Positions 1 to 54,658 of a stretch of DNA of 56,829 nucleotides are shown piece after piece (the first letter of the stretch is position 1; the number at the start of each line of letters is the position of its first letter). The position numbers and the translations under genes are program-made. A model generated the notes under the pieces. The model saw only the letters and a program-made list of their open reading frames with translations, was not told the DNA's origin and made no database searches. This DNA is from Dimargaris cristalligena. Its lineage: Eukaryota. The DNA is taken from NCBI GenBank assembly GCA_003614675.1, contig ML002255.1, positions 1-56,829 of the forward strand. The letters run 5' to 3'.

Positions 1-343
1 ATTCGGTTAGTCTTGTCACCCCCCCTAACACTAGTAGCCCACTTGGCCATGTCCAACGCCCCACCTACTGTTAGAAGCCTACCCCCGAGACTCTTGACGG
101 ACTGAGAGTGGTTAACTCGGGCGACAATAGAAAAGAAATTCAGCCCATTTCAATCCAGTTTTAAATGACATGCGTATGGTTAAATCAATAGGATATACCC
201 ATATTATGTTATACGTTCCGCAGTGGTAATACGGCCACCATGCGTGGAACCCAAACCCCTGGGTATATGGGTTGTTGTGCTTTTTTTTTTGTCCACCTAA
301 TAATGATTGTTGCATTCGGAAGGGGAATGAGGATGGCTGTATT

Positions 344-13376: not shown

Positions 13377-13520
13377 ATATGGGTGAACTTCAACCCAACT
13401 GTATAAGATTTTTCACAATATATGTATGGGATAATATGTGGGAGAATAACTTTTGACCAGTAATATTTACCTCATCAAATGGATTATTCGTTATACAGCC
13501 TGGATGAACTTCTGCCATAT
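13377..13520 (+). mobile_element. 144-bp MITE-like element, copy 2
   Basis: ATAT-GGGTGAACTTCA...TGAACTTCTGCC-ATAT. Confidence 0.8.
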
Positions 13521-16200: not shown

Positions 16201-16679
16201 TTCTCCGCCACCTTCGGATAGACCTCGCTCGTCTTGTCCACCGTCCGCCCTTGATTCACAGCCACTCTCTCCCCCCTTGGCAACTCCGCCCCGACCTCTT
16301 GCCTACTTCTCCCCACACATATCCCTCTTCCTTTTATCGCTCTTTCTCACCCGATCGCCTTCCTCTCTTCTCTTCGGACTTTGCCTATTTTCTCTGTCCT
16401 CTTCCTCTCTGTCTTGCTCCTTGGATTACCCGAGGCTGCCGTATCTTCATTCCTCCTCCCAACTTCCCCAAAAGCGGACCCACTGTTAAGCGTTTTAGAT
16501 AGCCGCACCTAATCCACATCCGCTCTTTCTCCATCCCTTATTCCTCTGGCCCTACCCAATGTCCATTGACGTGGTTGCAGCCCACTCCGACTCTAATCCC
16601 ACCATGCGACCTCCATCTTCCACCCCAGCCCCCGCCAACAACTCTTCCGTCCCCTTCCCCTCCCTGGGGGGGACCGGAT

Positions 16680-19600
16680 ATGCGGCTACTGTCCAAGCGC
16701 ACCATGGAGATCCAGGCCGAGGAAGGTATTCGACTGGCTCGACCCAGCCCCTTGGCTCCCGCTCCCGCTCCGTCCGCCTTCAACCCCTTCAAGGAGTTTG
16801 TGCGCTCCAAGACCCCCGAGCCTAGCTCCGGCTCATCCCTGTTTGACTGCGGGCCCTACGGTGACTTTGATTCTAGCCCAAGCCAACGGTCAACTGGCCC
16901 CGGCTCGGATGATATCCCGAACGGTGGCCTAAATTTTACTGGTCCGCGTCGATCCAGGGCCGATACCCTCCCTTCCTCGTTCCAGCCCTTGGACCTGAAT
17001 CTGTCCCTCAATGCGGAGCCCCCTGCCGCCCCCGCCCCTCCTTCCCCTAAACTACCGGCTCCGGTCGCTAGTTTACGTGCGTCGGCTTCCACCACATCCC
17101 TGCGATCCAGCCTCCACCGCTCCCGGGGCACCTCTCTGCATCTGCCCCCGACCGCCCTTAAGGAGGCCTTTGGGCCCGGGGTGTATACCTCGGCCTGGCT
17201 CAGTGGGGGCTTGGAGGACAGCGTTCTGCCCAGCCCCATCGCGACCCGCAATCAAATCGAAGAAATGAACAGTTCCCTCGCCAAGACCCTCGACTATCTG
17301 GGTTTGGACGAGGCCTGTATGTCTCCCCTCGAGCCCAAGCGCCAGGAGTTCCACCCACCCCACGCCGGGCGCCCAATGCATCCGAATTTTCTGGAGCTGC
17401 AGAACGCTGGCCGGATCCGGTCCTTCTCTCTCACCAGTGCCGATCTGGAAGATGAAGTCACCACGGGACCGGTCAATCCCAAAGTGGCCAACATCATTAA
17501 CACTCACGTGCGTACCCGGACCATCTCCAACCCCTACGCCGATCTGGGTTACCACTCTCGTGTGCCCTCCTCCCTGAGCGAGTCTATTTCCGCCAACCAG
17601 CTGCTCAATGGATCCGTGGTTGGTGAGTCGACCCCTCTGCGGGCCGCCTCCCCAGCTGGCCTGAACGGTCACCGGGCCCCTCTGAGCCGCTCCCACACCC
17701 CCGTAATGGGATTGGGTATGTCTAGCCTGGATGGGTCCAGCCAGTTGCCCTCCCGTAACCATACTCCTCGGAGTTCGGTCCACATCAACCCGGCCGACCT
17801 CAATGCCGAGATTAGCGGCTACTTGCAGAGCTTAAGCAAACACCCTTCGCTGGAGAATCTGGCTGGAGGCCGCCTCGATAGCTGTGACAGCGACGGCATG
17901 GGTCCGTCTGGTGACACCCTGATACCTACCCGCTCTCTATGGGTGGGTAACGTGGATCCGGCCCTCACTACCGCCGACTTCATGAATATCTTCTCCCCCT
18001 TCGGGGCCATCGAGTCCCTGCGCCTGCTGCCCGATAAGGAATGCGCGTTCATTAACTTTGCCCGCGTCGAAGACGCCATCAAGGCCCGGGATGAGATGCA
18101 GAACGGTAAGATCGGTAACTGCATTGTGCGTGTGGGTTTTGGCAAGGGTGACAACTACGCCAGTGTGGACGCCCAGGCCATGCAGCCTACTCGGGCTATC
18201 TGGGTGGGTAACATTTCCTCGTCTACTACCCCCGCCGCCCTCCAGAGTGTCTTCTCGGCCTTTGGCCCCATAGAGTCGGCCCGGGTCTTGACTCACAAGA
18301 ACTGTGGGTTTGTCAATTTTGAGAAGCTGGAAGATGCCGTTCGGGCCAAGAAGGCCATGAATGGCAAGGAGATTGCCGACTCGGTGGTCCGTATCGGTTA
18401 CGCAAAGGTGCCATCCAAGTCCGACCTCAGTGGCCGGTCTCGTGTGGCATCCGCCGCTTCCCCCCTGCCTAGTCAGCTTCTGACCCCCTGGGCCACGCCC
18501 GCCGTCACGGTGGACCCCAGTCTGAACCCCGAGGATGTACTGGAACCGGGTGCTTCTTTCATCATTGACGAACAACTGGTGGCCTATAACTACCTGAGCA
18601 GCATCCCCCCACTGCCCGAGCCACAGCCCCACCAGCGTCTGGACCAGGCCCGTCTTCGGGAAATCCGCAAGCGACTGGATGGTCACCCCACCCAACGTGA
18701 TGTGGACACTGCCTTTGAAGAACTCTTTGGTGTGTCCGTGGAGCTCTGTACCGACTACATTGGTAACACCATTGTGCAAAAGTTCATGGAGCGTTGCTCC
18801 CCCGAGCAAAAGCAGCGCCTGATTGAGTCGGTGGCTCCCCACACGGCCTCCATCGGTACCCACAAGAACGGCACGTGGGCTATCCAGAAGATGGTCGAAA
18901 CTGCCACCACCTCAGGACAAATGCTGCCCTTCGTCATGTCCATCAAGCCCACTACCCCGCCTCTGATGCTGGACCAGCTGGGCAACTACGTGGTACAATG
19001 CTGTCTACGCTTCGGTCCCCAGCGTAATCAGTTCATTTTTGACGCCATTCACGCCCGCTGCTGGGAGATTGCCCAGGGCCGTTTCGGAGCCCGGGCGATT
19101 CGCACCTGCCTGGAGCACCAGTTGACCACCCGTAAGCAGCAGAAACTAGTGGTGATCTCTTTGGTAAATAATGCAGTGTCTCTGACCACCAATGCTAACG
19201 GCTCGCTCCTGATCAACTGGCTGCTTGATTCGTCGGGCTTCCATGGTCGTTTCCGAGTCCTCGCCCCTCGCCTGGCGGACCATTTGGGCCATCTGTGTAC
19301 CCATAAGCTAGGCTCGTTGGTGGTCCTCAAGATCATCAACCAGCGGACCGAACTGGACGCCCGGGACCTTCTTCTGGGCCGACTCTTCTTCGACCCTTCC
19401 TCTGCTGTACTCGAGGATGTGCTCAGCGACCAGGTGCACGGTGTTTCCATTGTGCAGAAGATCCTGGCTGGCAACAGTTTGAATGAGTCCCAGAAGCAGG
19501 CCATCGCCGAAAATGTCAAGAACGTCTTGGCGCGCCTCCAGGTCTTCGCAGTCCAGGGCTACCGCCGGCTGTTGGAGGAGATTGACCACATCCTGCAGAC

Positions 19601-20246
19601 CTCGTTTGCCTCCCTCGCCGTCCTAGGCTCTTCGACCACTCCGCCCGTGATGCCCGGCCGGCAACAGTCTCCCCTCCACTTACCTCCTCACCTACTGCCC
19701 CACCACCAAGCGTCCCTGCATCACCATAACCACCATGGTCACCCTCAGCAGCAGATTCCTCCCCCTGCCCAAAGCCAACAACAACAACCACAACAGCAGC
19801 AGTCCTTCCCCGTGGGTACCTTCAATGGCCTCTTCCCCCACGCGGGTCCAGCCGCCAACTCAGCTCCTGTGGGTGGAGCCGGTTTCCCCTACAACAACAT
19901 GATGGTCTACAGCCCACTCATGAATCCCTACAGCTACGGCGTTGTAGGCATGTCTCCCAACAGCGGGATGCTAAACATGGGTATGGCTGGTGGGCCAGGC
20001 ACGGTGGGCGGTATGGTCCCCAATAGCATGCTTCTGGCCAACGGCTCGGCGGGAACTAACACGCCACCCTTGGATGCCAACCGGCAGAATCTGTTGGTTT
20101 CGACTCTAGCCAGCGCCACCTACGCCTCGACAGCGGCGGCTACTAATGGTAATTTGGGCTACACTGCTGGGGCCGATAATGCCCTGGCCACCTCGTCGGC
20201 GGATTCCGTAGATCAACAATCCTCGACTCCTATGGCTTCCATGTAA
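16680..20246 (+). CDS. Jsn1/Puf1-Puf2-like protein with two RRMs and Pumilio repeats. First in-frame ATG is 16680; true start may be 16559 (see findings)
   Basis: RRSRADTLPS motif; RRMs PTRSLWVGN..KECAFINF and PTRAIWVGN..KNCGFVNF; PUF repeats DYIGNTIVQK, HKNGTWAIQK, DQLGNYVVQC, GRFGARAIR; His/Gln-rich tail. Confidence 0.9.
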   Translation: MRLLSKRTMEIQAEEGIRLARPSPLAPAPAPSAFNPFKEFVRSKTPEPSSGSSLFDCGPYGDFDSSPSQRSTGPGSDDIPNGGLNFTGPRRSRADTLPSSFQPLDLNLSLNAEPPAAPAPPSPKLPAPVASLRASASTTSLRSSLHRSRGTSLHLPPTALKEAFGPGVYTSAWLSGGLEDSVLPSPIATRNQIEEMNSSLAKTLDYLGLDEACMSPLEPKRQEFHPPHAGRPMHPNFLELQNAGRIRSFSLTSADLEDEVTTGPVNPKVANIINTHVRTRTISNPYADLGYHSRVPSSLSESISANQLLNGSVVGESTPLRAASPAGLNGHRAPLSRSHTPVMGLGMSSLDGSSQLPSRNHTPRSSVHINPADLNAEISGYLQSLSKHPSLENLAGGRLDSCDSDGMGPSGDTLIPTRSLWVGNVDPALTTADFMNIFSPFGAIESLRLLPDKECAFINFARVEDAIKARDEMQNGKIGNCIVRVGFGKGDNYASVDAQAMQPTRAIWVGNISSSTTPAALQSVFSAFGPIESARVLTHKNCGFVNFEKLEDAVRAKKAMNGKEIADSVVRIGYAKVPSKSDLSGRSRVASAASPLPSQLLTPWATPAVTVDPSLNPEDVLEPGASFIIDEQLVAYNYLSSIPPLPEPQPHQRLDQARLREIRKRLDGHPTQRDVDTAFEELFGVSVELCTDYIGNTIVQKFMERCSPEQKQRLIESVAPHTASIGTHKNGTWAIQKMVETATTSGQMLPFVMSIKPTTPPLMLDQLGNYVVQCCLRFGPQRNQFIFDAIHARCWEIAQGRFGARAIRTCLEHQLTTRKQQKLVVISLVNNAVSLTTNANGSLLINWLLDSSGFHGRFRVLAPRLADHLGHLCTHKLGSLVVLKIINQRTELDARDLLLGRLFFDPSSAVLEDVLSDQVHGVSIVQKILAGNSLNESQKQAIAENVKNVLARLQVFAVQGYRRLLEEIDHILQTSFASLAVLGSSTTPPVMPGRQQSPLHLPPHLLPHHQASLHHHNHHGHPQQQIPPPAQSQQQQPQQQQSFPVGTFNGLFPHAGPAANSAPVGGAGFPYNNMMVYSPLMNPYSYGVVGMSPNSGMLNMGMAGGPGTVGGMVPNSMLLANGSAGTNTPPLDANRQNLLVSTLASATYASTAAATNGNLGYTAGADNALATSSADSVDQQSSTPMASM

Positions 20247-20527
20247 CTTTTCCATGGCCTGGTTTGACTAGCAACTCACTTGATTTTTTTCTTAAAGCAT
20301 AAACAGCCGCAATCTTGACCCTAGTGCGCGCACCCCCTCACCCCTAAAACCGTACTCTTTTGATGTTCGAATTGATAATCTCTTTCCACTCACTCACATC
20401 CTCTCTAATTTTTTTACGTCCTTCCTTGACCTTCGAAACACACTTCCCCTAGTTTATATATCCCTTATTCTATATATATATCCACATCTACACTAGATCC
20501 AGCCCCCATTCTCGACCAGCCATTAAC

Positions 20528-20671
20528 ATATGGGTGAAATTCAGCTCGGCTGTACAAGGTTTTAACAGATATGTGTATGGGAAAATCGGTGGGATGTTAA
20601 TTTCCAGCCAGTAGTATTTGCCTCATCAAATGGGTTTTTCGTTATACAGCCTTGTTGAATTACTCCCATAT
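20528..20671 (+). mobile_element. 144-bp MITE-like element, copy 3, between convergent genes
   Basis: ATAT-GGGTGAAATTCA...TGAATTACTCCC-ATAT; most similar to copy 1. Confidence 0.85.
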
Positions 20672-21176: not shown

Positions 21177-23603
21177 TTAGCTGCCGTCTTCATCATCAGT
21201 GCTATCACTCGCCAAATCATCTTCCTCACGGTACACCGGCCGCACATGCGGAGCCAACACGGCGTTAATTTCCATTCGGGCGAGTTCACGGTCGATTTCC
21301 CGTTGGCGGCGTTGGACCTCCCGGGGAAAATACAATTTCAAAAAATTGCGCAAAGCGCCGTCCAAATTGCGGGCAGTGGCGGATTCCACAGCGGCGGGAC
21401 AGCGACAGAGGGGACAGTCGACGATACGCTGCCGCACGGCCTTGACCAAACAGCGCACACAGTACCGATGTCCGCAGCGTAAGCGCACGGGGGGCCAACA
21501 CAAGGCCAAACAGAGCGGACAGTCGTAGTCGGTGGGCTGGGGGACGAGGGTGAGTAACCGACGGGCGAGGGCGAAACTCAGGGCGCGGGGTAAGTCTAGT
21601 GCCGCGAAGGAGGACAAGGCGGAGGAAGTGGGGGTTCCATCCAGGCCCCCGGCCCTTCGATGCCGGACGTGAATAACGAGTTCGGAAAACACCGGAGCGG
21701 CCCTCAGGTGGGTCCGTTTATCGTGTTTTTTCAGGATTTTGGTCAGGGCGGTCTGGTTCAAGTCCCGGAACGCCTTGGCAGTGAGGAGGGCCAGATTGAA
21801 ATGCAAGAACTCGGTCAAGACCATGGGGGAAGCCGGGTGACGCCAGTGGTCCGGCAGCCGGTGGCGGTCCAGGATAGTATGGGTAAAGGTCCGGAATTGG
21901 CGTTGGGAGTATTCGACCGGTCCCTCCCCGCGGCGCCAGTCCCCCTGGGCTTGTTCCCAAATGGCCGCAGAACGGTAGCAACGAAACACCGTACGCCAGC
22001 CGTACAAGTCGGGGCTGTACGGGGAAGCTACCGTGGCGAGTTGGCTTTCTAATTTGTCGAGTCGGTGGCGGAAATCGGCTTCGCTATGCCGCTGGAATCG
22101 GTCCATGCGTTCGAGTTGGTTCAGAATGGAACTGAAAAACGTGGTGTCGGATTTCAGAGTGACGGTTTGGCTGGGGCTGGGGAGTAGAGTAGAGTAGGAT
22201 AGGAGAGATAGTATGATGGGTAAAGAAAGAGGGTTAGTTGAGATGGTAGACCAGTGGGTGAAGAACTTCAATGGCCCTTTTAATAGCAAGCCCAGGCTCG
22301 TTACGTCACTGATCCTAATTGATTAAGCGGATTATGGCGATTATGAATTAGAGACAGATCTCCTCATTTAGTAGAGTATAATCTATAATCTATACTTACC
22401 TAACATTAGCCTCGCCAAGCACTTCCGCTTCCTCTGTCGAAGCCGAGCATTCGCTGCTTTTGGCTGCATCCAGGGTGGACGGGACCTCGTGGTTTTGCGA
22501 GCCATCGCGGGTTATAACCGTTTTGGCGGATGGTTTGGGTAATTGAATTACCGAAGTGATTGAGTCGCTGGAATCTGCAAGGAACAAAAATTCGGTAATA
22601 GGGGGATCAAACAATATGTGATTGTGAATGTTAATATTAATATTAATACTTATGCTAATACCGTGAGACCGATGCACTTCGCCGGCAGCTGAAGGATCAG
22701 ACGATTCTCTGGACTTAAAAACAAAAAAGCACGCACCCTGCAGGCAACTTCATGTATCGTTGCTATTGTACAGGTCAGGTCAGGTCCATCATATTTTTCT
22801 GCCCTGTTTGCAGTTTGGGAGTGCTCTTATGAGCCACCACCCCCACCTAAACCACAGGGTAATAGTGCATATGATATTCCCGTGCAAATAAAAGAAGGAG
22901 GGAATAGTATATACAATATGGGGTACATTTACGACTTTGTATATATATATATGGTGGCCAGTTTCTCGGCCGAGGGCCCGCCCCACCTACCGAACGAACC
23001 CCCCAAAAAACAATATAGAATCCAAGGAAACTTACCAATCAGGGAGTACACCAGCCCGCTTAGCAACGGCCGTCTCGACGAGGTATTCGAAAAGTCAGGC
23101 ACCGTGGCGCCGGGGCTCTTAACCAAGCCGGCGGGCAGCGTTTCCGGTGAAGAAGGTATCCGGATCGCGTCGATGAACCCGGTCGACCCTAAAACTTCAT
23201 CAACCTGGTGGCGGCGGCCTTCTGCTGTGGATTCCGCCGTTGTGATCGGCTTATTGGTGGGCGAGTCACTGGAGTGACGACGGGCCACCGCCACCCCCGT
23301 GGCCCCTTCTACCCCAGGTTGTTCGTCTTTGCCGGCGTCGCCAGTGTCGTCGTCCTTGTCTTCTTTTTCCCCTTGGTCTCCTTCACCTTTTACCTCCCCC
23401 GTCTCCTCACGACTGACGGGCGATGGTTCAGGGACGAAGGGACTGCTGTGCCTAGGCTGGGTGGGGGACGGCGGAAAGGTCTCCTCCAGTTCGCGGACGA
23501 TAAACTTGATGCTTTTCTTCAGGCCTTTGTAGTTGATAAGGTAGGGTCGCCAGTCGACGGGCAGCTCCGTGGCCCCGGCCTCGAGGGTCTTGTTAAACTT
23601 CAT
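21177..23603 (-). CDS. SPX-RING E3 ubiquitin ligase (S. pombe Pqr1/Spx1-like, plant NLA-type architecture). Exons (minus) 23603-23036, 22574-22400, 22176(or 22314)-21177
   Basis: SPX N-terminus MKFNKTL..PVDWRPYLINYKGLKKSIK; SPX C-terminal part LNQTALTKILKKHDKRT; C3HC4 RING CPLC..CGHRYCVRC..CPLCR; intron phases are consistent. Confidence 0.9.
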
Positions 23604-25559
23604 GGGTGGGTAGAGCGCACACGCGGGTGGGTGGGGGGGGTTACAGGTGGTCAGTAGAGGACAGTAATGGGTGAGGCAAAAATAATAGCTGGGAGGGAGG
23701 GAATGAGACCCCGGGTGGGTGGTGGTGGGACTATGGCGCGCAAGGGAATGGGGAAGAGAGAAGACGAGGGCGGGTACTCTGAAAAAACGCCTCAACCATA
23801 TGGAAACAGAAGGATGTAGGGGAATAAATATGGTAGAGCGTGTGGGAGAAGCCTCAGAAATTGAAGTAGGCACTATTGGGCAGCAGTCCCTTTTTATATA
23901 ATGTACCCGTTTCTATATGCGTATTTACAGGTAGGTTATATGCCCTTAGCCACCACCACAGTATATTTTTTGCACAGGGAATGGACCACACAGCACCCGC
24001 GGGCGATTGGACAACTCCGGGCAGTGAGAGAAAATATTGCTAAAACTGAGCCCCCCTATTCGCTCCTGGGGCTACTCGACTTGTCGAACGAGGGACGCAG
24101 CATGGCCCATGCGTCCCTTTCTTATACCAATAGTTCGCTGACTTTTAAAGTAGGCTGAACCAGCCAATACTTTATAATGGGGCGAAGACCTATTATTACT
24201 GAATAACTATAACAACAGGCGACTTGCTCCTTAATTCCGATGGAAGTCCTTGGTACGGAAATCCGGGAGAATCGACCGGTTGGCCCGTTCCATTCTGTTC
24301 GATTGGCCGATACCCTCCTATATCCAGCGAATTGAAACGAAAGGATAACTGCTGATCCAACCCCCATGTCCCTCTCCCACCATAGTATTTAGAAAACATA
24401 CTACTCTACGAATAAGCCCACAACACCCACATTTCCAAAGCATATACTTTTAAAGTTATTTATTACAAATGATGAATATCCCAGAACTGCCATCGGACAA
24501 CCTATACGAAACAAGTAAGCCAAAATCAAACATAGAATCATGGATTAGAATCCCGCCTTCACGGAACACACATCAACAGAACCTGCTGTAAAGCAGCCCT
24601 CAGAGATCTTGGTGATAAATTTATAAACTTCATTGCACCTAGCTCGTAAGTAGCAAATATATCAATCATCAGCGGGCATATGGGAGTTGGTTGAATCATC
24701 GATAGCACAGGGGCAATAGACTTACCATTAAAACCACCAACGGACATCACGGGGGGTTACCGATTGGCCTAACGAACATACAGAACACCATCTATTGCAA
24801 CAGGTTTCAGGATCAAGCGGAATAGATAATACTAGTCAATACACAAGTACTGAAATGCGGCAACGAAAGGTCCTTTCATCAAACAGCAGAGGCCGTTGGT
24901 ATATCTCAGCAAAAGTTGGAATCATCGGGAAGCCTTGTGAACAACCCAGATCATACGTAAATTATCCGAAAAACATCAGAGAAGGGGCACACTAACATAA
25001 TACAATCGGTGTGTAGAGGCTTACCTTCTATAGTCAACTAGGCTGGAAGAGATACTAAAAAACACAAGAAAACAAGTGAAATGAGAGAGAAACATAGTTG
25101 CTTAGGCCAGACCGCCTTCTAGCTGTATATAAATATGGCCCCAGGTTTAGCAGGCTAATCAAATGCCTGCTTGCTTCTGATGGGTGGCCTAAATAGCCCC
25201 TTAAAAAAATCAGCAAAAAAAAATTGGATTCAGATATCAGTTTCGGCACGTGACTCAAAAGCAAAGTCAGGTTAAGCATCAAATGATGGTAGAAGTATAT
25301 CAAAATACGCCCCCTCTCTCCCGCACTTAATCTCCTTTGGCTGTGGTTCATGGGAGCAAATGGTTAACAAAATTGGGTACTAGTAGAAACAGATTTGGAT
25401 ACAGGGATATACCAGGTGTTGATAAAAACCAACCGGCGGATGGTTAAATATAGGTGCAAAGTAGCTCGTGGCCCCACTACCAAAAAAAACCCCCCCGCTC
25501 ATGTTCATAAATAAATGTCCATTTGTGATTATAGAGACGCTGATTTAGTTTCTAAATCC

Positions 25560-25703
25560 ATATGGATGAAATTCAAACCAGCTGTATAAGGTTTTACAAT
25601 ATACGTGTATGGGCGAATATCTGTGAGAATAGCTTTTAACCAGTAATATTGGCCTCATCCGATGGATTTTTCATTATGCAGCCTGAATGAACTTCTCCCA
25701 TAT
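25560..25703 (+). mobile_element. 144-bp MITE-like element, copy 4
   Basis: ATAT-GGATGAAATTCA...TGAACTTCTCCC-ATAT. Confidence 0.8.
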
Positions 25704-26155: not shown

Positions 26156-26419
26156 TTACTCCACCTTGCCGCCGGTTTTGGAGTTAGCATCAGTTTTTTT
26201 CTCGTGACCGGTATATTCGCGGAACTTCTCGATGCCCTTATCAAGCGCTTTTTCAAGGCCAATATGCACTGCCACTTCTTTCAGTAGTTCACCGCTAATG
26301 AGGGCCCGTCGTTGCAAGGGGGGTGAAGGGTCGGAGATAGTGTGTATAGGGAATAGGTGGACAGCCGAGGTGAATACCACAACTACTACGGCGGCAGTTG
26401 ATAACCAGTGCGGATACAT
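26156..26419 (-). CDS. Small putatively secreted prepropeptide (87 aa) with LQRR dibasic site and helical 49-aa mature region
   Basis: Hydrophobic N-terminus (WLSTAAVVVVVFTSA), short Pro-rich spacer, LQRR, then ALISGELLKEVAVHIGLEKALDKGIEKFREY...; same strand and architecture as the neighbouring peptide genes. Confidence 0.6.
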   Translation of the reverse strand: MYPHWLSTAAVVVVVFTSAVHLFPIHTISDPSPPLQRRALISGELLKEVAVHIGLEKALDKGIEKFREYTGHEKKTDANSKTGGKVE

Positions 26420-28410
26420 ACTAATTGAACTAATTCGGAGGGTTTGGCTTGGGTGAGAACGGTCTCGTCTGTATAGTCTTGCGTGTCGGATTAGATTGGA
26501 TTGGATGGGGCGTAGTTTGTGGAGTGAGTCCTAAAAATCCATCAAGCCAAAGAGTAAGTTAAATAGATACCACGAATTAATGAAAGCAGGTCGGTGAGGA
26601 TGGCGCCTAGGGCGATATGGTGATACACTCGAAAGTGAATTATCTTCGGATTATCGGGTGGCCTCAGTTAATCACCGTTGTTTGGTTTTCGAGGGAGTGA
26701 AGTAATAAATGGTATCATGTGGAGGCATGGTTGCTATTGTCTGCGTTAAACATTTTACGGACCTTTTGGCAGTAGAGGGGGGTATGCAGATATGAGGTAT
26801 ACGAGGTATATATATACAAAACCAGTAGCATAGATACAACATCCTCTATGACGGTGGGTCCGGTTTATATATATATGTAATTATTACAGGTCGAACCAAC
26901 TAACCCCTCTGTCTCCGGGGACATGGGGTAAAGTATTACGCGAAGGTATAGGCCTGCGTTTATGTTGCTAAGGCGCCAAGGTATTTTTTGAAGCCACGTC
27001 AAATAGTTTGGTAATCCAAGCGACTGGTGGAGGGGAGAGAGGGGGGGGGGGGCTATCAATAAATCCGCTTCATTATTGGCGGTACCCATCGAGGAAGAGA
27101 GGGCGGTGGAGCCCCATGTTATCCGCCAAAACAACCGAAAAGAAGGAATGCCTTTTGAGCACGAATAGTATTATTTGCCATTCACCTGCCTGTCCGGCCA
27201 TACATTTTCTTGTCTGGCTTGGCAGCCTATTGGCCGGAATATCTTTTTTTCCGAAACATGGTCAGTATGACCCCCATTGCCAATTCCTTGGCCGTTCGAT
27301 GAAGGAATTGAGGAGTAGGAGCGACATCTAGTGCATCACTAAGCGGGTATATGAGCCCAAGGGTAAAGACAAAAATAGGCCCAGATGATCTACGCACAAT
27401 CCCTCTCCCCTCCCTACTCATTGGTGTATGTGTCTGTCCGTCCACCAATCCATAGTTCACGGTGGCTCGGGCCCTTGGATAAACCATTTATGCGTGGTAT
27501 ACGGCGGTTGGATAATTGGAAGGGAAGAGGGTGAGTGCGGTTCATTCTACTAGCCCGTTGAACTAGCGCTCTGCCCCATCCATCGCCTCCACATTTACCC
27601 AATCACCGGACTTCCTACAAGCATGCGGGGAGCGCTAGAAATGGAGGGGGGAGGAGTAGACTCACCGCAGGTTTGTACCATTAGCCGACTACCAGATGTA
27701 AGCGGCCGGCCCTTCCACCACACAGGTACACAGGGCAATGTCCTTTGCGTTTCTGGCATCGACTTGGTGCTGGGCATAATTCCCTAAAAACGCACCATGC
27801 AATAAGGATGCCTTACTATGAACTCACTGGCCTATATGGAATCATGGAAACGAAAAAAAAAAAACCTTATCACCGCCACAAGTAAATATTCGGAAACCTA
27901 AACCCGAGTCCCGGTTGTATCCTTTCAGCGTTTTTCGGCTAAAATCACATATATGGTAAATTGATACATAAAAATAAGCAACAGGATTTAAACACCCTCC
28001 CCGCCCTTTCGACAAGCTATATGATAACAATGGTTAAAAACATAAGGTATTTAAAGAGAAATCGAGGCGACCACGGTCTTCATTTGATTGTTTATAATAA
28101 CACAGCGTGTCTGGCGGCAATGTAGGTGAATGAGCCACACAAACCTAAGTCAACGAAGCCGTCCAACATGTAATGGGGGTGGGGGTTTTTGTGGACGGTA
28201 TGAGTATATATCGTATATCTGTACCACTATGTCCCCCGGGTAATTCCCTAATTCTGAGCAACAGGATCCAAACATATAACCAGCCGTAAGCCCCAGAGAG
28301 GCTTTATACAACCAGCTCATTAATAGTCTCATGAAATACCAGTTTATCCTTTTTGTTTGCAGGGTGGATATATGTTTATTGAAAAAGTAGGACGCGCCCT
28401 CACAATAGGG

Positions 28411-28451
<41 letters not shown>

Positions 28452-28583
28452 TAAAAGTCCTGCGAAGGGTAACCATGACTGGATTTTGAATACATACCAA
28501 CTGTGGTGCAAATATCGCTCAAGGCACACGAACAGATGTGGAGGTGGGGAAATCCTGATGGAAAGAATGCTATTTTGAGATTA

Positions 28584-28817
28584 TTATTTGGAGCCAGAAC
28601 CACTGATGGCCCTATTGACACCAGCTTCTGCCCCAGCGTTAGTGGCTGCTTTGCCAGCACTTGATTTGAATAACCTCTTTCCGAAACCAATCGCTTTACC
28701 TAAAATACTATTAGCGCGCTTTTCTAGGACCGGGGCAGCGTGGACGGGAGGTTCTGCTACAAGGTAAACGGCGATAGTCAAAGCTACGAGAGTGGGGATG
28801 GCAGAAGTTAAACGCAT
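28584..28817 (-). CDS. Secreted cationic amphipathic prepropeptide, paralogue A (77 aa)
   Basis: Signal peptide MRLTSAIPTLVALTIAVYLVAEPPVHA, pro-segment APVLEKR, mature ANSILGKAIGFGKRLFKSSAGKAATNAGAEAGVNRAISGSGSK. Frame, length and stop are conserved with paralogue B; prepro changes are mostly synonymous. Confidence 0.85.
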   Translation of the reverse strand: MRLTSAIPTLVALTIAVYLVAEPPVHAAPVLEKRANSILGKAIGFGKRLFKSSAGKAATNAGAEAGVNRAISGSGSK

Positions 28818-29045
28818 GGTGTACGGGGGGAAGTAGGGGTGAGATTGGAGAAAAGAAATATAGGTGTGGAAAATAGGGCCGAAAATTGCAGTGTAGCGAG
28901 CAGAGTTGACTTGGAGGAGTAAATGATAGGAAATGATGGGTATATTGCTAAATGGTAAATGTTAGGATGATGCGGATGAAAGTACGAAAATGATGCTAAT
29001 GGATAGGGTGATAAGGATAGGGTAGGTAAGCTGGATAAACAGGGC

Positions 29046-29053
29046 TTTATATA
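29046..29053 (-). promoter_or_regulatory. Candidate TATA box (TATATAAA) of peptide paralogue A
   Basis: GTATATAAAGCCCTGTTT on the minus strand ~230 bp upstream of the ATG; conserved in the duplicate. Confidence 0.55.
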
Positions 29054-30651
29054 CATTACGTGAAGTAATAGATAGACACTAGCCACCCCACTAACTGTCG
29101 GGGAATGGTATCTTTCTCGCCCGTCTTTTACACAAAAACATGTAGCCCTTGCAACGGAATAAATCGGCCCCGACATGAAATAATCGTCCAATCGTCCATT
29201 TTCATCATAGTGGGCTATATCGCTCAATGGACTAGTCATTGATGACATTACCAAGGCTGCATGATACGCCTACCCTCACCAATACTATAATTATAGATGA
29301 ACATCCAACAATGGAGAGGGCGAGGGGATTGTCGGTTAAATATGAGGTAATCGCGGGATGTAATGCCCCATCGATAGAGTCGAACGTAGCAGCCACCCAA
29401 TCGCCTGTGGCCCCCCATGACCAATGCATTAGTTTGGGCGATCGTCTCTGATCCGTGGAATCCACCCATTTACTATCACTGTACTCTGCTATTTAGGTTA
29501 TAGGTATGATAATATCCCTATCTGCGGGAGGGGGGGTAACGGCTATGTGCATGGTGCCTTTTGCTGGTAAGGGATGTGGGATGTGAAAGCTAGAAGTTAC
29601 CAGTCACTTTATATCAGGCATCGTAATGACTCGCACACCATGCCAGGTCACTACCCCCTCCCGAAGAAGGCACTGTCAAATTTAAAATGAACTTCTTGCC
29701 GTACTAACATCAACTATCCCACCAGCAGGTGAAGACAGTTAGATAACGTAGGCAGGGCGAATAATTCGATTGAAACCATTGGAGTTGAAGGGGGGGATAC
29801 ATAGGATTATAGACGGAGCGGAGAAGGGAAATATGAAAAAAATATATTAATCGAAGTCGAGGGGTTGTAATAAAGAAAAGAGGGAGGTGAGAAACAATGG
29901 GCCGTGGAACAATGTTGGATTTTTCTTTTCGTTATAGCACCCCCCGCTATACAACCACAGTTAAACGCCAGGGTTTCCAGCTTTACCGACTATTGAGGAT
30001 GTAGGCTCTTTTAAACATCAACTGCCCCCGCCCCTACCCATGCCCTCACCCCCCTCCTTTACCTCTGTGCCCATACTTTAACCCTGTCCCTCCTCTTTCA
30101 ATCGATCAACATCTGGGGCTAGGGTTATCCACAATTACGGATAGAGCTCGTTCAGTGAGCTGTAATAAAATTTTTGATTTCGCTTGTTTAGCGGGTGATT
30201 CATTCATCCCAATGGGCTAGCTGTCAGTCCTATCGATAGTTACTATGGTATATAGATACAAAGGACGTACCTGCGGTAGAATCACTAATCGCTGTTTCGG
30301 TACTGACATTCCAAGATTACCTGGTTTATTGAAAATTGTGGCGCTCAGTTCTAATAGTCACTCGATGGATTTGGGTAAGGTCGTCTTATATATGTATGGT
30401 TGATATTATGCGGTGGATAGAGTCTAAAACTTGCATGGTTGGTATGTAAACAACTTATTTGCCAATAACTTACCAGATGTGACGGATTTGTTTCCTTAGG
30501 TGGTATGTGTGCTTGTGTTTTTGTTTGTGTGAGAGTGAGAGTGAGGGCACAGTATAGGTAGGGAATATTCCGCATCTACGGACCTTTGCCCATTATGATA
30601 CTGATTTCTTCAAGCTATTACCTAGACCAGTTGTTATTATCATTGTAATTG

Positions 30652-30844: not shown

Positions 30845-32160
30845 CAGTGGTACAAATTAGTATAGTAATGGGTTGAACTCCTGGTGCAGGGGGGGTATTG
30901 CTCAGGATCAAATAAACATAAAAATAAATGACTTCCATTAGAAGAAAGCCCTGCTTATCTTGTATATTCACACAACATCATGAGTTTATAATAGCTTCAT
31001 ATAAAAATGTAATGAGGGTTTGAAAATGACTGGTGTACTGATACCCTTTTTCATGCTATCAATAAATAGCTCATTTATTTCTCTGGATTTGAATATCAAC
31101 AAAAATTATTGTGATACAGCTAATAGCTTTCTGCATTTCCTAACTTCTCTTTTTCTCTAACTATAGGCTGATCTTTCTACTCATTATGAAGCTCATAACT
31201 AGGCCAACAAACACAATATCCTGCAGTACTCCTGCAATGACAATAACTACTGAAAAAATATCAAGGTACTTGGTTTAGGCCTTACTACAGTATACTTGGT
31301 TGTTAATAGGGTGCATCCATGCTCTATTCAGGTAACATTATTGTAAAAATAGACCACCCTCACAAGCTATATCAGTGGGATAGGCTGTATCATGTCAGCT
31401 AGATCATGCTAGGAGGGGTGGAAACAGTTGTGGATATCCACAGATTGCTCAGAGGCAATTGGTGTGTCTGTGTATATTAATATGATACATAACAGCCCCC
31501 ACTCAAAGAGATTGTGTGGGGTTGCCAAGCCCAACAAGAATTATTTATCTCCATAAATAGTGTTAAGGAGTATTTTGTTTGGATAGTTGCTTATATAGGT
31601 TGGACTCTGTATAACTGGAAGAGGATTGTATAGGTTAAGAAGACTAACACCATATGTTTCAGGTCTAATGACCACCCCTATATGTAGAAAGATTGGGCTA
31701 AGAAGTTCTAATTGTGCCACATTGATAAAAATATAAAATATGAGATGAAAAATATCTAGTATTAGAGCTATACTATGTTTGATAATAATTACTAAATTGT
31801 CAAGATTGGCAACATACTAAACCAGTACCTCTATAAGAGTATCCTCAAGGAAAATATGTTCTCCTTAGGCATACATCACTGGACCAATACTGACCATATA
31901 ATCTTTTAGTAGAATAATGGCCTTGAATACACAGCTAAATTTGTCCAAAAATAAGTTGCATAGTAACTATTGAACACATACAGACCCTACTTGAAAATTA
32001 TCCCTAATGTGACTATGAATGATTACCTAGGGGGAAGCCCAAGCACCTGGAAAGGATTGAAGCAGCATGATACAGCGCCACCAAAATTAAATGTGGGATA
32101 GTCAATGGCACTTTGCCCATATGCTGCAAGTAAGTGTGTATTGCTGCAAAGTGCAGGATT
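30845..32160 (+). mobile_element. Degenerate Tc1/mariner (Tc1-type) DNA transposon; transposase pseudogene ~31186-32156
   Basis: Possible left end TA|CAGTGG at 30843-30850. Translation from 31601 gives WTLYNWKRIV*VKKTN..FRSND (cf. WTxDDWKRVIWSDETK..FGSDG), LYKSILKENM, and IF**NNGLEYTAK at 31901 (cf. IFQQDNxPxHTAK); C-terminal ERIEAA*...CIAAK. Confidence 0.85.
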
Positions 32161-33778
32161 GGGGAAAGTCGATTTTTTATCGATTTTATCGGGTACGATC
32201 ATTTTCATATTTATTCATGTTGTTATGACGGAGGCAAAGCCATTACTTCAACAATATACACCATCATCACCACTGAAACCGTGGGCGGAAAGCGACCGTT
32301 TATAACAAAGCTCGATAACAGAAAACAGCAGTTATCGATTACGAATAACCATCGCTAGTGACCGCGTGAATACCCCGGTGATATTACATGAACTATTCAT
32401 ATCCGAATGTTTTATTTGAACCCGCCTTTCTCCTCCCTGATTTGGAGAGCATGGATAAGAGCCCGAATATGATCACAAGTACGATTTTCTAGCTATTCTA
32501 ATTATATTATTCTTTAAGATTATTGTCTCCCGAGTATTTCTTATGAATTATTCTATAAATCAGTTTTTGAATGGTTCTTTCTAGTAGACCATCCGTTCGC
32601 TTATCAGCAAAGGATCCACGAAGGTGAAGCCGCAAGTAACCAGGATTCCTTGGGCTCGTTTACGTTAGCCCGGTTCTATTGGATGTTTGATTCTTTTTTA
32701 TAAATAATTTTAATACTCGTTAAATATTCTTATGTCTCGAATGCCCCGGTACCGTTCTGTCTTTCCGAGGGAAACAGAGTCCTCATCATCGTCAGTGTCA
32801 TCATCACCGGTTTCTCGGCCAAGTTTCCCGGAAGTTCGGAGTCTTGCCTCAAGTACCCTCGTGCGGTCTGGTGGCCTACAACCCGAAAGGGCCACGCCGA
32901 ACCCTCCTGGATCCCCGGGTCGTGGCAATACAAGTGATCACTAATAAGGACTACTAAGTGGACTATCAATTGACTTTTATTAGCCCATCAGCGCTTTATT
33001 AGACTTAAAGAAGTGGATTAATATACTAGTTATTTTCAATCCCCCATATCTTGTTTTAGAATGCAGTTATAAACTTATAGTTCTGCTTGTATATACTAGA
33101 AAAGTATGACATTCTCCTAGCGGCACCTATTTATTTATCTCTTCATTAGATCCCGGGCAATTGAACCACAAATTCAATAGGTCAAAGCGTTGATAGTTTC
33201 TTTTCGAGCCACTGTATATGGTGGCATCGACCAACGATGGATGGCATTTATAGGGAAATTGAAGTGGCCACGATCTTCGCGTGATTGTCTAAAAAAACCC
33301 CGGCTTGTCTGACGGTAGTGAAGGCGAATGGGTCACACTATCCTAAGCCAGCGGAGCTGCCCAAAATTTAATGGGGCTGTAGTTTCATGTATATAATAAG
33401 GGTACGAATAATATATCTGCCTCACCATGCCTCCTGGGTAATTACATACAGGCGGAAAACGGTATTCAAATACATAATTGGTCATAAGCCCTGGAGAGGC
33501 TTTGTACCATATTTTTATAAATAATTTTGTGTAATACCCATTCATTATGTTTTGCTTGCAGGGTGAATATATATGTTTATTGAAAAAGTAGGACACACCC
33601 ACAAAAATAGAGTGTCTTTTATATATGCACCAATACACCCATACTGAAAGCCCTGCCAAGGTTGAACCAAGTATAAATTTCGAATACATGCAGAATGAGG
33701 GGGTGGATATCGCTAAAGGTATACGGACATATAGATGGGCGTGGAATCGTTGACGAAATACACGTTATATTGAGAGTA

Positions 33779-34012
33779 TTACTTTGCGCCAGAACCACTG
33801 ATGGCCTTATTGACTCCAGCTTCTGCCCCGGCGGTGATAGCTGCTTTGCCAGCACTTGACCCAAATATTCTCTTTCCGACATTAATCGCTTTGCGGAAAA
33901 TACTAGGAGCGCGCTTTTCTAGGACTGGGGCGGCGTGGACGGGAGGTTCCGCGACAAGGTAAACGGCGATAGTCAAAGCTACCAGGGTGGGGATGGTGGA
34001 AGTTAAACGCAT
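33779..34012 (-). CDS. Secreted cationic amphipathic prepropeptide, paralogue B (77 aa)
   Basis: MRLTSTIPTLVALTIAVYLVAEPPVHAAPVLEKR|APSIFRKAINVGKRIFGSSAGKAAITAGAEAGVNKAISGSGAK. Confidence 0.85.
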   Translation of the reverse strand: MRLTSTIPTLVALTIAVYLVAEPPVHAAPVLEKRAPSIFRKAINVGKRIFGSSAGKAAITAGAEAGVNKAISGSGAK

Positions 34013-34248
34013 GGTGTACGGGGGGGGGGGAAATGGGGGTGAGATTGGAGTAAAGCAATATAAGTGTGGAAAAAGGGGCGGAAAATTGCAGTGTAGCGAG
34101 CAGAGTTGACTTTGAGGAGTAAATGATCAGAAATGGTGTGGGTATAGTGCTAAATGGTAAATGTTAGGATGATGCGGATGCAAATACAGCAGTGATAATT
34201 AATGACAAGAGTGATAAGGATACGAAATGTAGGCAGACTAAACAGGGC

Positions 34249-34256
34249 TTTATATA
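34249..34256 (-). promoter_or_regulatory. Candidate TATA box of peptide paralogue B
   Basis: GTATATAAAGCCCTGTTT on the minus strand, same context as in copy A. Confidence 0.55.
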
Positions 34257-36439
34257 CACCATGTGAAGTAATTGATAGATACTAGCCACTCCACTAGCTG
34301 TCGGGGAATGGCTCCTTTCTCGCCCGTCTTTTACAGGAAGACATGCAGTCCTTGCAATGGGATGAATCAACCCCGACCGGTGGAACAATCGCCAACTCGT
34401 TCATTTACAAGATTTACAGCCATTAATCTAGGTGGACTAGTCATTGTTATGAACAGCATGGCTGCAGGATAAACCCACCTTCCTCAATACTATTATCGTA
34501 GATGGGCAACCAACAAAGGAGAGGGTGGGGAGGAGGAGGGGGGTGATCCTTTTAAATGTGGTAATCACGAGCCGTAGTGCCCCGTCGATAGAGTAGAACG
34601 TAGCGGTCATCCAGTCGCCTGTAACCCCCCACTACCAAAGTACTAGTTTTGCCGGCCGTCCCTGATAAGTGGCGACCACGCCTTTGCTGCCTCTGTATTC
34701 CACTTTTATGGTTGTAGGTATGATTAACGCCCTTTCCGTGGTATGTGTGGTGACGGTTGCGTATATGGTGCCTTTTGCCAGCGTGGGATGTGAACATTAC
34801 AAGATGTTTGGAACTTTCCATCAGTCTTCACAATTACGCGCCAAATATGCAAAAAGTCGCCACCCCATCCCAAAAAAGAAGACGTTATCCAATTTAAAGT
34901 AGGGCCCTTACCGTATTAACATTAATGGCCCCTCCAGCAGGTGAGGGCGGCTAGGTGATCTAGCAGGGCGGATAATACGATTGAAAATATTAGAGTGGGA
35001 GGGGAGCTGGATTGGTGGGTAATACAAATGATTACAGGCGGATCAGGGAAGGAAAAGGGGGGGAAACTATATATTAATAGAAGAGGAGGGGTTGTAATAA
35101 AGAAAAGAGGGAGGGGAGAAACAATGAGTTGTAGATTAATGTCGGGTTTTCCTCGCATTGTAGCGCTCCCTGCTATACGACCACAATAAAGCACCAGGGT
35201 ATATGGCCCCGTCAACTACCAGAAGGTGCAAGTTATTTTAGGCCTTAAATACCCCTGCTCAAAACCACACACCCACTCTTCCCCCCTCCTTCACCTCTGC
35301 GATCGTTCTTTAACTCTGCCCCTCCCCTTCCAACTGATCAACATCTGGGACTGGAGCCAACCATAAGGACGGAAAGAGTTTATTCAGTGGATTGTAAGAG
35401 TTGCTTGGTCAGCGGTTTATTCATCCCAATGGGCCGGCTTTCAACCCAGTTGCTGTCTAATGGAAAGCTCAATGGTAGGACCGGGCTTTATTGACTGTAA
35501 ATATATATATGGCCAATATTTCCTACTCCCATTTTATTATACGCCCTATGTAGCTGGGTCGAAATTACGCCCATGGACCTCAGCCCTTTCCACCCTATCT
35601 ATATTGCTTTATACAGTGCCGATGTACAAAGAAGGTGAACAAGTAGTAGAGTCACCGGCCGCTGTTTCGGTATTGTCATTTTGAGAGTAGGACCAGCTTA
35701 GTTCAGTTAAGGACACTCGGCTTTAATAGTCACACGTTTTGTTTGTTTGTTGGGCAAGGTCTTCATGCATAATTAGGGTTAGTATTGTGCGGCGGATAAC
35801 ATAAAATGTCTGTATGGCTAATGGGCAGCCGACTCATCCGCTGATGACTTATTAGATGTGCCAGTGTGAGTATGAGGGCATCTCGTAAATGGGTATTATT
35901 TCGCGCTCTTGAGCGTCTGTCCATTATGCAACTAGCTTCTTCTAGCTATTGCCTAGATTAATTGCTATTAGCATTGTAATGGGCATAATCAACTTAGGTG
36001 CGCCCGTGTTATTTTGACAACCCTATAAAATGAAAATGCCCAATTTATGGAGCCACTCTATAGTACCATACTTACTCTACTAGAATGTTTGAAACTTATG
36101 TATATGGTAAGAAACGCAAGGTATTATATATTAATGGCTACTGATGGGGTAAAATGGAGGAGGATCTCTCACATTGAATCAATACTTTAATGGAACATCT
36201 ATGGTCTTCTTCTGCCTGGGTTTTTAGGTCACCTGACTTTATAGTCCCAGGTCTATCTCCAAGAAGCACGAAGTCTCTCCTCTCCTACGCTTCCTCAGAA
36301 TCGCTAACTTACCATGGCAATTGGCCAGGATATGCGGAGTCTTGGCAGATGAGAGATGACCTATATTCCCATTCCATTCCATTCCCTCTCCAATTCATCA
36401 TTTGTTTTTTTTTTGGATTTTCGTAACTAATTAAATAAC

Positions 36440-43809: not shown

Positions 43810-43980
43810 ACTTTTTAAGTGGTCACATGAACCAATCAAGTACTTTTTAAGTGGCCGCATGAACCAATCAAGTACTTTTTAAGTGGTCGCATGAACCAAT
43901 CAAGTTGGCCGGGTGTTACTTAGGCATGGCTAGTTTTTATAGTGGGCCGGGTGTTACTTGGGCATGGCTAGTTTTTACAG
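43810..43980. repeat. Compound minisatellite: 32-bp unit x3 followed directly by 38-bp unit x2
   Basis: (ACTTTTTAAGTGGYCRCATGAACCAATCAAGT)x3 at 43810-43905; (TKGGCCGGGTGTTACTTRGGCATGGCTAGTTTTTAYAG)x2 at 43905-43980. Confidence 0.9.
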
Positions 43981-53128: not shown

Positions 53129-53272
53129 ATATGGGAGAAGTTCATCTAAGCTATATAACGAAAAATCCATTAGATTCGGCTAATATTACTAGTTAAAAAT
53201 AAATTTCCCATATATTCTCCCATACACATATAATGTAAACCTTTATATAGCTGGGCTGAATTTCACCCATAT
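53129..53272 (-). mobile_element. 144-bp MITE-like element, copy 6 (inverted orientation)
   Basis: ATAT-GGGAGAAGTTCA...TGAATTTCACCC-ATAT; reverse complement of the other copies. Confidence 0.85.
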
Positions 53273-54658
53273 GAAGGAAGTGCGAAGGCAATTTAAATCG
53301 ATGCGATGTGGTACCAACTTATTAAGAAATTATACCTAATTTAATTAAGAAAGCAGCCTCGGTAACACAGTACATTTTATGACACTACATAAACGGAAGG
53401 TGGTTTCGATTAAGGTGATTCATGGACAACATCCAGCGCTATGGGGGCTAAAGAGATGATGCCGCCCCCTGTGATCTGAATAAAGAACTGCGGGTTTGCA
53501 ACCGAATTACCTATAGCTTCCGCCAATGGGTGACGTTTCTTAGACATTTGGGGAATATAGGTATACATGGGTGTTCAAAATAAATTTAGATGATATCGGT
53601 ATTAATTTAGTGTTGCTCGTTTAAGTAAACAGCCAAAAGAACAGCCGCATCAGTTCCTCCGATAGCAACCAGGTACTAAAGCCCGGATATATATATTAGT
53701 ATTTACATATATATTTGGAAACATAATCATGTTGCCCCCATTTATAATCCTAATTAGCGAATACGAGTTCAGAAGCCCAAGGGCAAATAACACAATCATA
53801 ACCGTTCTTTATAAAATATATATTTCGGCTTTCCAAACTAGAGTAAGCCTACAGGAGCTCTCTCATTCGGGAGGGTTTATTTCCAATATCATATTTCATT
53901 TAAAGTGGGGACCCAGTATGCATAGAATGCATTGTGATAATGAAGCCACCTAATTTGCGGTGGAGTCATGCCACGTACACCGCGACTTATAATTCTTATT
54001 TTTTCCAGGTTCGGTAATGGCTTCACCTTGTTTATGGAAGGTGGGCGAATCATCCGTATCCTTCCTTCCTCCTCAGTCCCCGAAATCATAAGTCCTATAA
54101 AACCCCAATAGCCCCAGCCCTTACCTCATTTCTCTGTACTAACTTATCCTTTTTCAACGTAGCATTAGTTTATATAATTGTTATAATGTTACTTATCCCT
54201 TAGAACTTGAGTACTATTTATATCCACAGTTCCATTCACATGCTGCCCATTGGTTTATCCGCCTATATAAGACGCGTTAAGTTACTTTATTTGGTGTATT
54301 TTACAAATTATTGTATACTTATAGCTACATATTCGTCCATATCCCGATAAACGCAGTTTCATTTCCGCTTACCGCTTAGCCTAACTTGTTGAAGTTAACA
54401 TCCGATATACCCTATTATACACCGACTACCTGGAGCTTCCATTTCCGCGAATTCCCATTATAACATTCAGCTTTCCATCTTTCCGCTCTTTTTTGGGCGC
54501 GCCTCTTTCTAGTTAGTATTTAATCTCACTTAATTCAGCTTACGGCCTCCCATTCCCGGGTTATAACGATTGGTACCTTTTTCGCGTTAATTATATACAT
54601 ATATATATTTAAGTTCATTCATTACTGAGAGCACCTTCTAGAGCAATTACTTTTTTGC

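Follow-up and report, generated by a model that had tools for sequence, protein, structure and literature searches.

The Dimargaris cristalligena window that we analyzed (all 56,829 nt of contig ML002255.1) carries two tandem duplicates of a small secreted-peptide gene, copies A and B. From the substitutions that separate them, both are very probably real genes, and the difference in selection along the gene is real. They belong to family I, which has at least eight loci on five contigs of this fungus. The value of the pair lies in what is apparently an undescribed fungal family of small cysteine-free secreted peptides, not in a selection contrast between two sequences. The product may be a secreted, cysteine-free, membrane-active peptide that resembles cecropins and dermaseptins in layout with no detectable homology; going by its sequence, we regard this proposal as evenly poised.

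RESULTS

Two copies in tandem duplicated units

Each copy sits in a duplicated unit of ~2.2 kb, and the two units (Table 1) are 72.5% identical over 2239 columns. The dispersed repeat that separates them is a probable transposon relic. The right end of this repeat is matched, too, by sequence immediately downstream of the family I fragment on contig C1699. The flanking genes are eukaryotic housekeeping genes, encoding CS domain, SPX-RING, RRM, and PUF proteins. The exact copy A and copy B sequences were absent from a collection of 15 billion proteins, and public gene calls appear to have missed both. Therefore, a secretome survey that relies on gene calls would have overlooked the pair. The main text of a zygomycete secretome paper (PMC9391592) contains neither "Dimargaris" nor "antimicrobial." No description of these peptides was found in the literature covered, which excludes most subscription journals; the supplementary tables of PMC9391592 and PMC7329392 could list members.

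Table 1. Coordinates of the peptide genes, their parts, and related loci
Feature	Location	Strand	Observation
Copy B, 77-codon precursor gene of family I	33779..34012	-	ORF; frame-specific constraint
Copy B signal peptide, residues 1-27	33932..34012	-	Hydrophobic stretch; model helix 7-21; dN/dS 0.06
Copy B pro-segment (short; residues 28-34), with the first Kex2-type site, Lys-Arg, at its end	33911..33931	-	Same in both copies
Copy B cationic amphipathic segment, residues 35-51, with second Lys-Arg at 47-48	33860..33910	-	
Copy B Gly/Ala-rich C-terminal segment, residues 52-77	33782..33859	-	dN/dS 0.20-0.27, <1 (p=0.01)
Copy B core promoter and 5' leader	34013..34259	-	TATATAA at 34250-34256; last 200 nt without upstream ATG
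Copy B AATAAA, 198 nt past stop	33576..33581	-	Copy A counterpart at +204
Copy A, 77-codon paralogue, 84% identity to copy B	28584..28817	-	ORF
Copy A helix codons	28665-28715	-	
Duplicated unit around copy A	28046..30226	-	TATATAA at 29047-29053
Duplicated unit around copy B	33243..35443	-	
~800-nt dispersed repeat, spacer between the two units	32129..32935	.	70-90% matches on many contigs
Family II gene of 87 codons; its precursor has a signal peptide and an Arg-Arg site, and the product is neutral and amphipathic	26156..26419	-	2.2 kb downstream of copy A
Family II paralogue on C142	L005:5213-5527	-	Acidic
Family II paralogue on C408	L010:1492-1743	+	Acidic
Family I loci on C142	C142:3132 and C142:16415		66 aa
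Further family I locus on C142	C142:19269		Diverged, without motif
Family I locus on C272			82 aa
Family I locus on C54	L032:1359-1674		Frame differs between signal and mature parts (either a true break or an error of assembly)
Family I locus on C1699	L030:422-559		Without signal part

Both open reading frames are under frame-specific constraint

The original prediction held that a bias toward synonymous change supports coding status, and we found frame-specific purifying selection in both ORFs. Copies A and B align without a gap over all 77 codons, within a surrounding 2.1-kb alignment that holds 20 gaps. In each copy the other five frames all contain stops, and only the annotated frame is open. 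Differences in the prepro part (codons 1 to 34) fall 1/0/7 on codon positions 1/2/3, and its maximum-likelihood dN/dS is 0.045 to 0.05 (p about 1e-5 against 1). Codons 52 to 77 gave 0.26 to 0.27 by the same approach (p=0.01 against 1).

The stretch from TATA to ATG differs by 14% between the copies, compared with ~30% in the flanks (p=1.5e-7). Upstream, each copy retains a TATATAA box at 236 to 244 nt (weak alone, because 18% of random 150-nt windows hold a TATA-like box) and has no ATG in the last 200 nt; AATAAA follows the stop by ~200 nt. It is very improbable that the pattern is an artefact, with the 5' part homogenised by gene conversion or the ORFs being non-coding remnants of a duplicated segment. 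Conversion may act in the family, because one pair of paralogues on contig C142 has a sharp low-divergence tract, and divergence is reduced in the 5' leader of the window pair too. However, synonymous divergence in the prepro part (0.24) is similar to the divergence of the flanks (0.30; p=0.55), which argues that this part was not homogenised, and we rejected conversion as the cause of its conservation. The strong frame-specific constraint on both ORFs also argues against an artefact.

Selection differs along the gene

Our recount of codon differences agreed exactly with the earlier one. Codons 1 to 34 have seven synonymous changes and one amino-acid change (A6T), whereas codons 35 to 51 have seven amino-acid changes (N36P, L39F, G40R, G44N, F45V, L49I, and K51G) and only two purely synonymous codons. 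The four amino-acid changes in codons 52 to 77 were also confirmed, and four synonymous codons accompany them. Changed residues number 1 of 34 in the prepro part versus 11 of 43 in the whole mature part (Fisher p=0.009), and dN/dS is heterogeneous across the three regions (p=2e-5 with F3x4 and 1e-4 with equal frequencies). The 17-codon window (35 to 51) was picked post hoc, and its scan-corrected p is 0.06 when the whole CDS is scanned and 0.41 when only the mature part is. A comparison of this helix with the tail gave p=0.08.

The original prediction went on to read the contrast as diversifying selection on the mature N-terminus. For codons 35 to 51, dN/dS was 0.64 by the Nei-Gojobori method and 1.19 to 1.46 by maximum likelihood, the latter not different from 1 (p=0.70 and 0.41) and with a supported range of ~0.5 to 3.5. 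Nucleotide divergence of the helix (0.275) matches that of the flanks (0.28 to 0.32). The coding status and the layout of a secreted, dibasic-processed precursor are supported. For diversifying selection, dN/dS of 0.64 to 1.5 gave no significant excess over neutral, with the low power of two sequences.

A two-class model, with residue classes defined after seeing the data, gave dN/dS of 0 for class-breaking changes and ~2.2 for within-class changes. These two values differ (p=0.008), and the within-class value exceeds 1 only at p=0.11. In neutral simulations, class was kept with acids and internal Pro avoided in just 3 to 4% of runs, and class alone was kept in 8 to 11%.

We also looked at variation between samples. 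Run X5, a sample from a second study, has at least 20 private substitutions in 16.5 kb. None of those listed lies in the contig piece that spans copy A or in the CDS of the family II gene. Two fall in the piece that spans copy B, one upstream of the ATG and one outside the listed set.

Charge and amphipathy are kept

Retention of net charge and of the amphipathic pattern had been predicted as well, and both hold: residues 35 to 77 carry +6 in each copy, and the split between helix faces is clean in each. One face of the helical wheel is formed by residues 45, 38, 49, 42, 35, 46, 39, 50, and 43, and the other by residues 36, 47, 40, 51, 44, 37, 48, 41, and 52. All seven amino-acid changes of residues 35 to 51 stay on their own face. 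This segment has a charge of +4 and computed hydrophobic moments of 0.55 and 0.66 (the latter for copy B). The best 11-residue moment beat composition shuffles in copy B and the C272 member (p=0.007) but not significantly in copy A (p=0.14), C142_16k (p=0.10), or C142_3k (p=0.20), so amphipathy is significant by this comparison in two of the five intact members. All intact family I members are cationic after residue 25.

The predicted structure has helices at residues 38 to 51 and 53 to 74, with low confidence (mean pLDDT 57.6). It had no match by fold in the PDB, and two PDB sequence matches (E 0.3 and 0.9) were rejected. Pfam searches returned 0 families at E<=1 for both copies and nothing relevant for five other family I sequences. 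The nearest neighbours by language model were all linear antimicrobial precursors (cecropin, 0.77; dermaseptin, 0.76; bombinin, 0.76; moricin, 0.75); these scores are below the 0.9 mark and one third of shuffled proteins reach 0.8, so they are a lead only.

A second Lys-Arg lies inside the supposed mature helix

To treat the mature helix as a unit was an assumption of the original prediction, which missed a second Lys-Arg within it, at residues 47 and 48 of both window copies. This position reads Gly-Arg, Ser-Arg, or Thr-Arg in five of eight family sequences, and four of the eight have no [KR]R site. The C142 members are without such a site, and their cationic segment is much shorter. After a cut at residues 47 and 48, the predicted pieces are a 12-mer with a charge of +1 or +2 and a Gly/Ala-rich peptide of 29 residues. 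Upstream, signal-peptide cleavage was placed after VHA by eye rather than with a predictor. The pro-segment that follows has seven residues, one of them Glu. Contig C197 encodes a Kex2-type protease that has a subtilase domain, a P domain, and a tail resembling a transmembrane segment.

Family I in D. cristalligena and searches outside

The eight loci are a lower bound from genome searches with single proteins, DNA, and patterns. Three of the eight are broken or motif-less, and our best explanation proposes that this is a birth-and-death family. In the shared layout, the signal peptide is followed by a cationic segment whose length varies, then by the motif R-x3-S-x-[VAI]-G-x-A (residues 48 to 57 in copy B; present in eight of the nine sequences examined) and a Gly/Ala-rich end. 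Across family members, conservation of the signal peptide is only moderate. A record from a different assembly of D. cristalligena, KAJ1970545.1, matches the C272 copy at 64 of 67 residues, and the three differences are all in the cationic segment. A protein from the C142 contig is on record as D. cristalligena. Two pattern matches were left out of the family count, one on C607 (one mismatch) and one on C7 (no precursor-like frame).

Subfamilies are 33 to 45% identical with indels, which makes them too distant for a reliable family-wide codon alignment. The C142 pair has four changes in the first 25 residues (signal peptide), one in the cationic segment, and six in the last 11. Therefore, the variable part in this paralogue set is the C-terminus, unlike in the window pair. 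The same pair (L005:3012-3310 versus L006:6295-6595) is 2 to 7% diverged from about -120 to +180 and 18 to 40% outside, which makes this stretch a candidate gene-conversion tract.

No family I relatives outside D. cristalligena were found across protein, metagenome, and prokaryote searches. The protein searches covered near lengths only (longer fused forms were outside their scope); a single-sequence word search gave 0 candidates, a five-sequence profile 0 of 103, and a seven-sequence profile 1 of 1093, which was from the same species. Metagenome scans gave 0 of 594 and 0 of 596 candidate stretches, and prokaryote genomes gave 0 of 30. A full phmmer scan returned three hits (E 1e-4 to 9e-4; 527 to 1336 aa). 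The two that were examined are long repeat proteins and were rejected.

A second family lies beside family I

Family II has three genes (Table 1), and one member is on record as hypothetical protein RKP38591.1. The window product has nine basic and nine acidic residues (neutral), whereas the other two are acidic (10 basic and 18 acidic; 5 and 10). Each has two or three His residues. Two of the three genes are within 2.2 kb of a family I gene, in differing relative orientations; the C142 paralogue is 1.9 kb from one. A rough chance figure for this proximity is 7e-6, but a single ancestral cluster could explain both cases. Complex prediction with family I and family II products scored 0.00, which counts neither for nor against an interaction. 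We offer a functional link between the families as a hypothesis only. It is improbable that family I is, all together, an independently evolved family, in an early-diverging mycoparasitic fungus, of cysteine-free cecropin/dermaseptin-like helix-hinge-helix antimicrobial peptides diversifying under positive selection, with family II as a trans neutraliser or as a second component replacing the frog acidic spacer.

Next to the C142 family II gene, L005:7222-7614 (minus strand) encodes a protein of 130 residues whose start is signal-like and which does not match Pfam. This protein is identical in two assemblies.

DISCUSSION

We propose that the signal peptide would be removed in the endoplasmic reticulum and that Kex2 would cut after LEKR. 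The +6 product could fold as helix-hinge-helix on anionic membranes, where its cationic face would bind and its Gly/Ala helix would insert. It might thereby permeabilise bacterial competitors in dung or the host hypha. Dimargaritales are described as parasites of other fungi that use appressoria and haustoria and occur almost only on dung (excerpts of PMC9866270). The parts of this scheme that we observed are the coding constraint, the family, the Kex2-type protease gene, and a cationic, amphipathic segment with a conserved stretch rich in Gly and Ala after it. If the cationic segment needs only charge and amphipathy, then it would tolerate within-class exchange at about the neutral rate or somewhat above. 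Such tolerance would produce the observed contrast with or without positive selection.

Diversifying (positive) selection on codons 35 to 51, driven by an arms race with targets, is a familiar pattern that is possible for the window pair and compatible with a membrane-active function, but we lean against it. Point estimates of dN/dS are 1.2 to 1.5 overall and 2.2 within class, yet no estimate is significantly above 1 (p=0.11 to 0.73), and the segment was delimited after the fact. Four of the seven changed codons have two or three substitutions. All three residues at which KAJ1970545.1 departs from the C272 copy lie between the signal peptide and the motif, whereas two neighbouring proteins are identical between the assemblies. 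However, for a segment of 33 of the 67 residues, the chance that it receives all three is ~0.11 (hand calculation), and KAJ1970545.1 may be a paralogue rather than an allele. The last 11 codons of the C142 trio have 0 synonymous and 6 to 7 non-synonymous changes per pair, which hints at adaptive change elsewhere in the family. Even so, the C142 pair varies in other parts than the window pair does, and the second-study sample has no difference in the copy A CDS.

The membrane-active +6 peptide also has to be weighed against other products of the same precursor. If a second cut were made at Lys47-Arg48, then the product could be the conserved Gly/Ala-rich C-piece of 24 to 30 residues, either surface-active by analogy with Ustilago Rep1 repellents or membrane-inserting by analogy with candidalysin. 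Lys-Arg is kept at this place in both copies despite a synonymous change at codon 48, and its Arg is invariant in all eight motif-bearing sequences. On this reading, the variable residues could serve as a spacer or form a 12-mer of their own, and constraint on them would be relaxed. Consistent with this, the best-conserved residues of the family come right after that Arg, the segment before it differs in length among members, codons 35 to 46 have a dN/dS of 1.19 (p=0.73 against 1), and Ece1 and Rep1 are multi-peptide Kex2 precursors (excerpts of PMC7329392). However, most members have a non-dibasic pair there, two of the seven changes fall after the site, and a clean amphipathic pattern would not be needed in a spacer that is discarded. 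We consider this product unlikely, and quite improbable that the peptides are non-lytic signalling peptides or haustorium-delivered, host-directed effectors (receptor ligands or cell-penetrating) whose variation tunes specificity. A biotrophic haustorial lifestyle (excerpts of PMC9866270) would suit the latter, killing the host cell would not obviously be useful, and cuts at both sites would give 12-mers with charges of +1 and +2. However, within-class interchangeability would fit a bulk membrane property better than a receptor ligand, and the precursors are without repeats of a pheromone-like core.

Family I can be likened to cecropin and dermaseptin precursors in layout but is a member of neither. 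With insect cecropins (PF00272; papiliocin and cecropin A) it shares the cysteine-free build and, by computation, a cationic amphipathic N-terminal helix. A hinge and a less polar C-terminal helix would be further common features, but the helices here come from a low-confidence model; those of papiliocin span residues 3 to 21 and 25 to 35 (excerpts of PMC4133896). Clustered paralogues are another common feature, and cecropin was the top language-model neighbour. The differences are that family I does not match the PF00272 profile, has a Lys-Arg processing site, is fungal, and is so far from one species. Cecropins have Trp2 and Phe5 as membrane anchors (excerpts of PMC4133896), whereas here there is no Trp, and Phe is at position 5 in copy B only. 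Dermaseptin-type frog-skin precursors (PF03032; dermaseptin was the second language-model neighbour) have a conserved signal part, a dibasic site, and a more variable C-terminal peptide (excerpts of PMC4279096), a layout that the window pair resembles. Their signal peptide is conserved, compared with 1 change in 27 residues for the window pair and 4 in 25 for the C142 pair. Their hypervariable mature domain has dN/dS above 1; the values here (0.64 to 1.5) are not significantly different from 1. The acidic spacer is also absent, its place being taken by the short pro-segment, and there was no PF03032 match.

Nor is family I a KEX2-processed repeat protein (KEP) family or a defensin family. Candida albicans Ece1/candidalysin, Ustilago maydis Rep1, and KEPs are likewise fungal and secreted, with Kex2-type Lys-Arg sites, and yield linear unmodified peptides that act on membranes or surfaces (excerpts of PMC7329392 and PMC9769878), the same type that we propose here. 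The KEP combination of signal peptide, Kex2 sites, and Kex2 is present, with two Lys-Arg sites per window copy at which cleavage is predicted. However, KEPs have repeated cores between Kex2 sites (excerpts of PMC9769878), whereas the precursors here have 77 residues, two dibasic sites, and no repeats. Their diversity comes from separate genes, and no sequence similarity to Ece1, Rep1, or KEPs was found. Fungal defensin-like proteins of the AFP/PAF type are also small, secreted, and cationic, but they are disulfide-stabilised with six to eight cysteines (excerpts of PMC3569713), and neither precursor here has any Cys.

Reviewed fungal antimicrobial proteins are cysteine-rich (excerpts of PMC3569713), and the linear membrane-active examples described come from multi-peptide Kex2 precursors (excerpts of PMC7329392). 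If our proposal is true, a non-Dikarya mycoparasite would have arrived by convergence at cecropin-like genes with a single core. Such genes would also be a first molecular candidate for the way in which Dimargaris deals with dung bacteria or with its host's membrane. The predicted products are 29 to 43 residues long, so synthesis could settle the matter cheaply.

Other features of the window

A 144-nt dispersed repeat occurs at positions 344-487, 13376-13520, 20527-20671, 25559-25703, and 53129-53273, and also on C142, C272, and C408, with very high summed contig depth. It has short terminal inverted ends (ATATGGG ... CCCATAT) and looks like a MITE. At 27039-27041 and 35804, both outside the peptide CDSs, all four sequencing runs differ from the assembly, and these are probably assembly errors. 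Positions 43810-43978 are non-coding and hold a 32-nt unit in three tandem copies, with two copies of a 38-nt unit immediately after. SPX and RING domains are split over two ORFs at 21177-23873 (minus strand), which are probably exons of one gene. Two genes on the plus strand encode RNA-binding proteins, a multi-RRM protein (7232-8971) and an RRM-plus-PUF protein (16566-20246).
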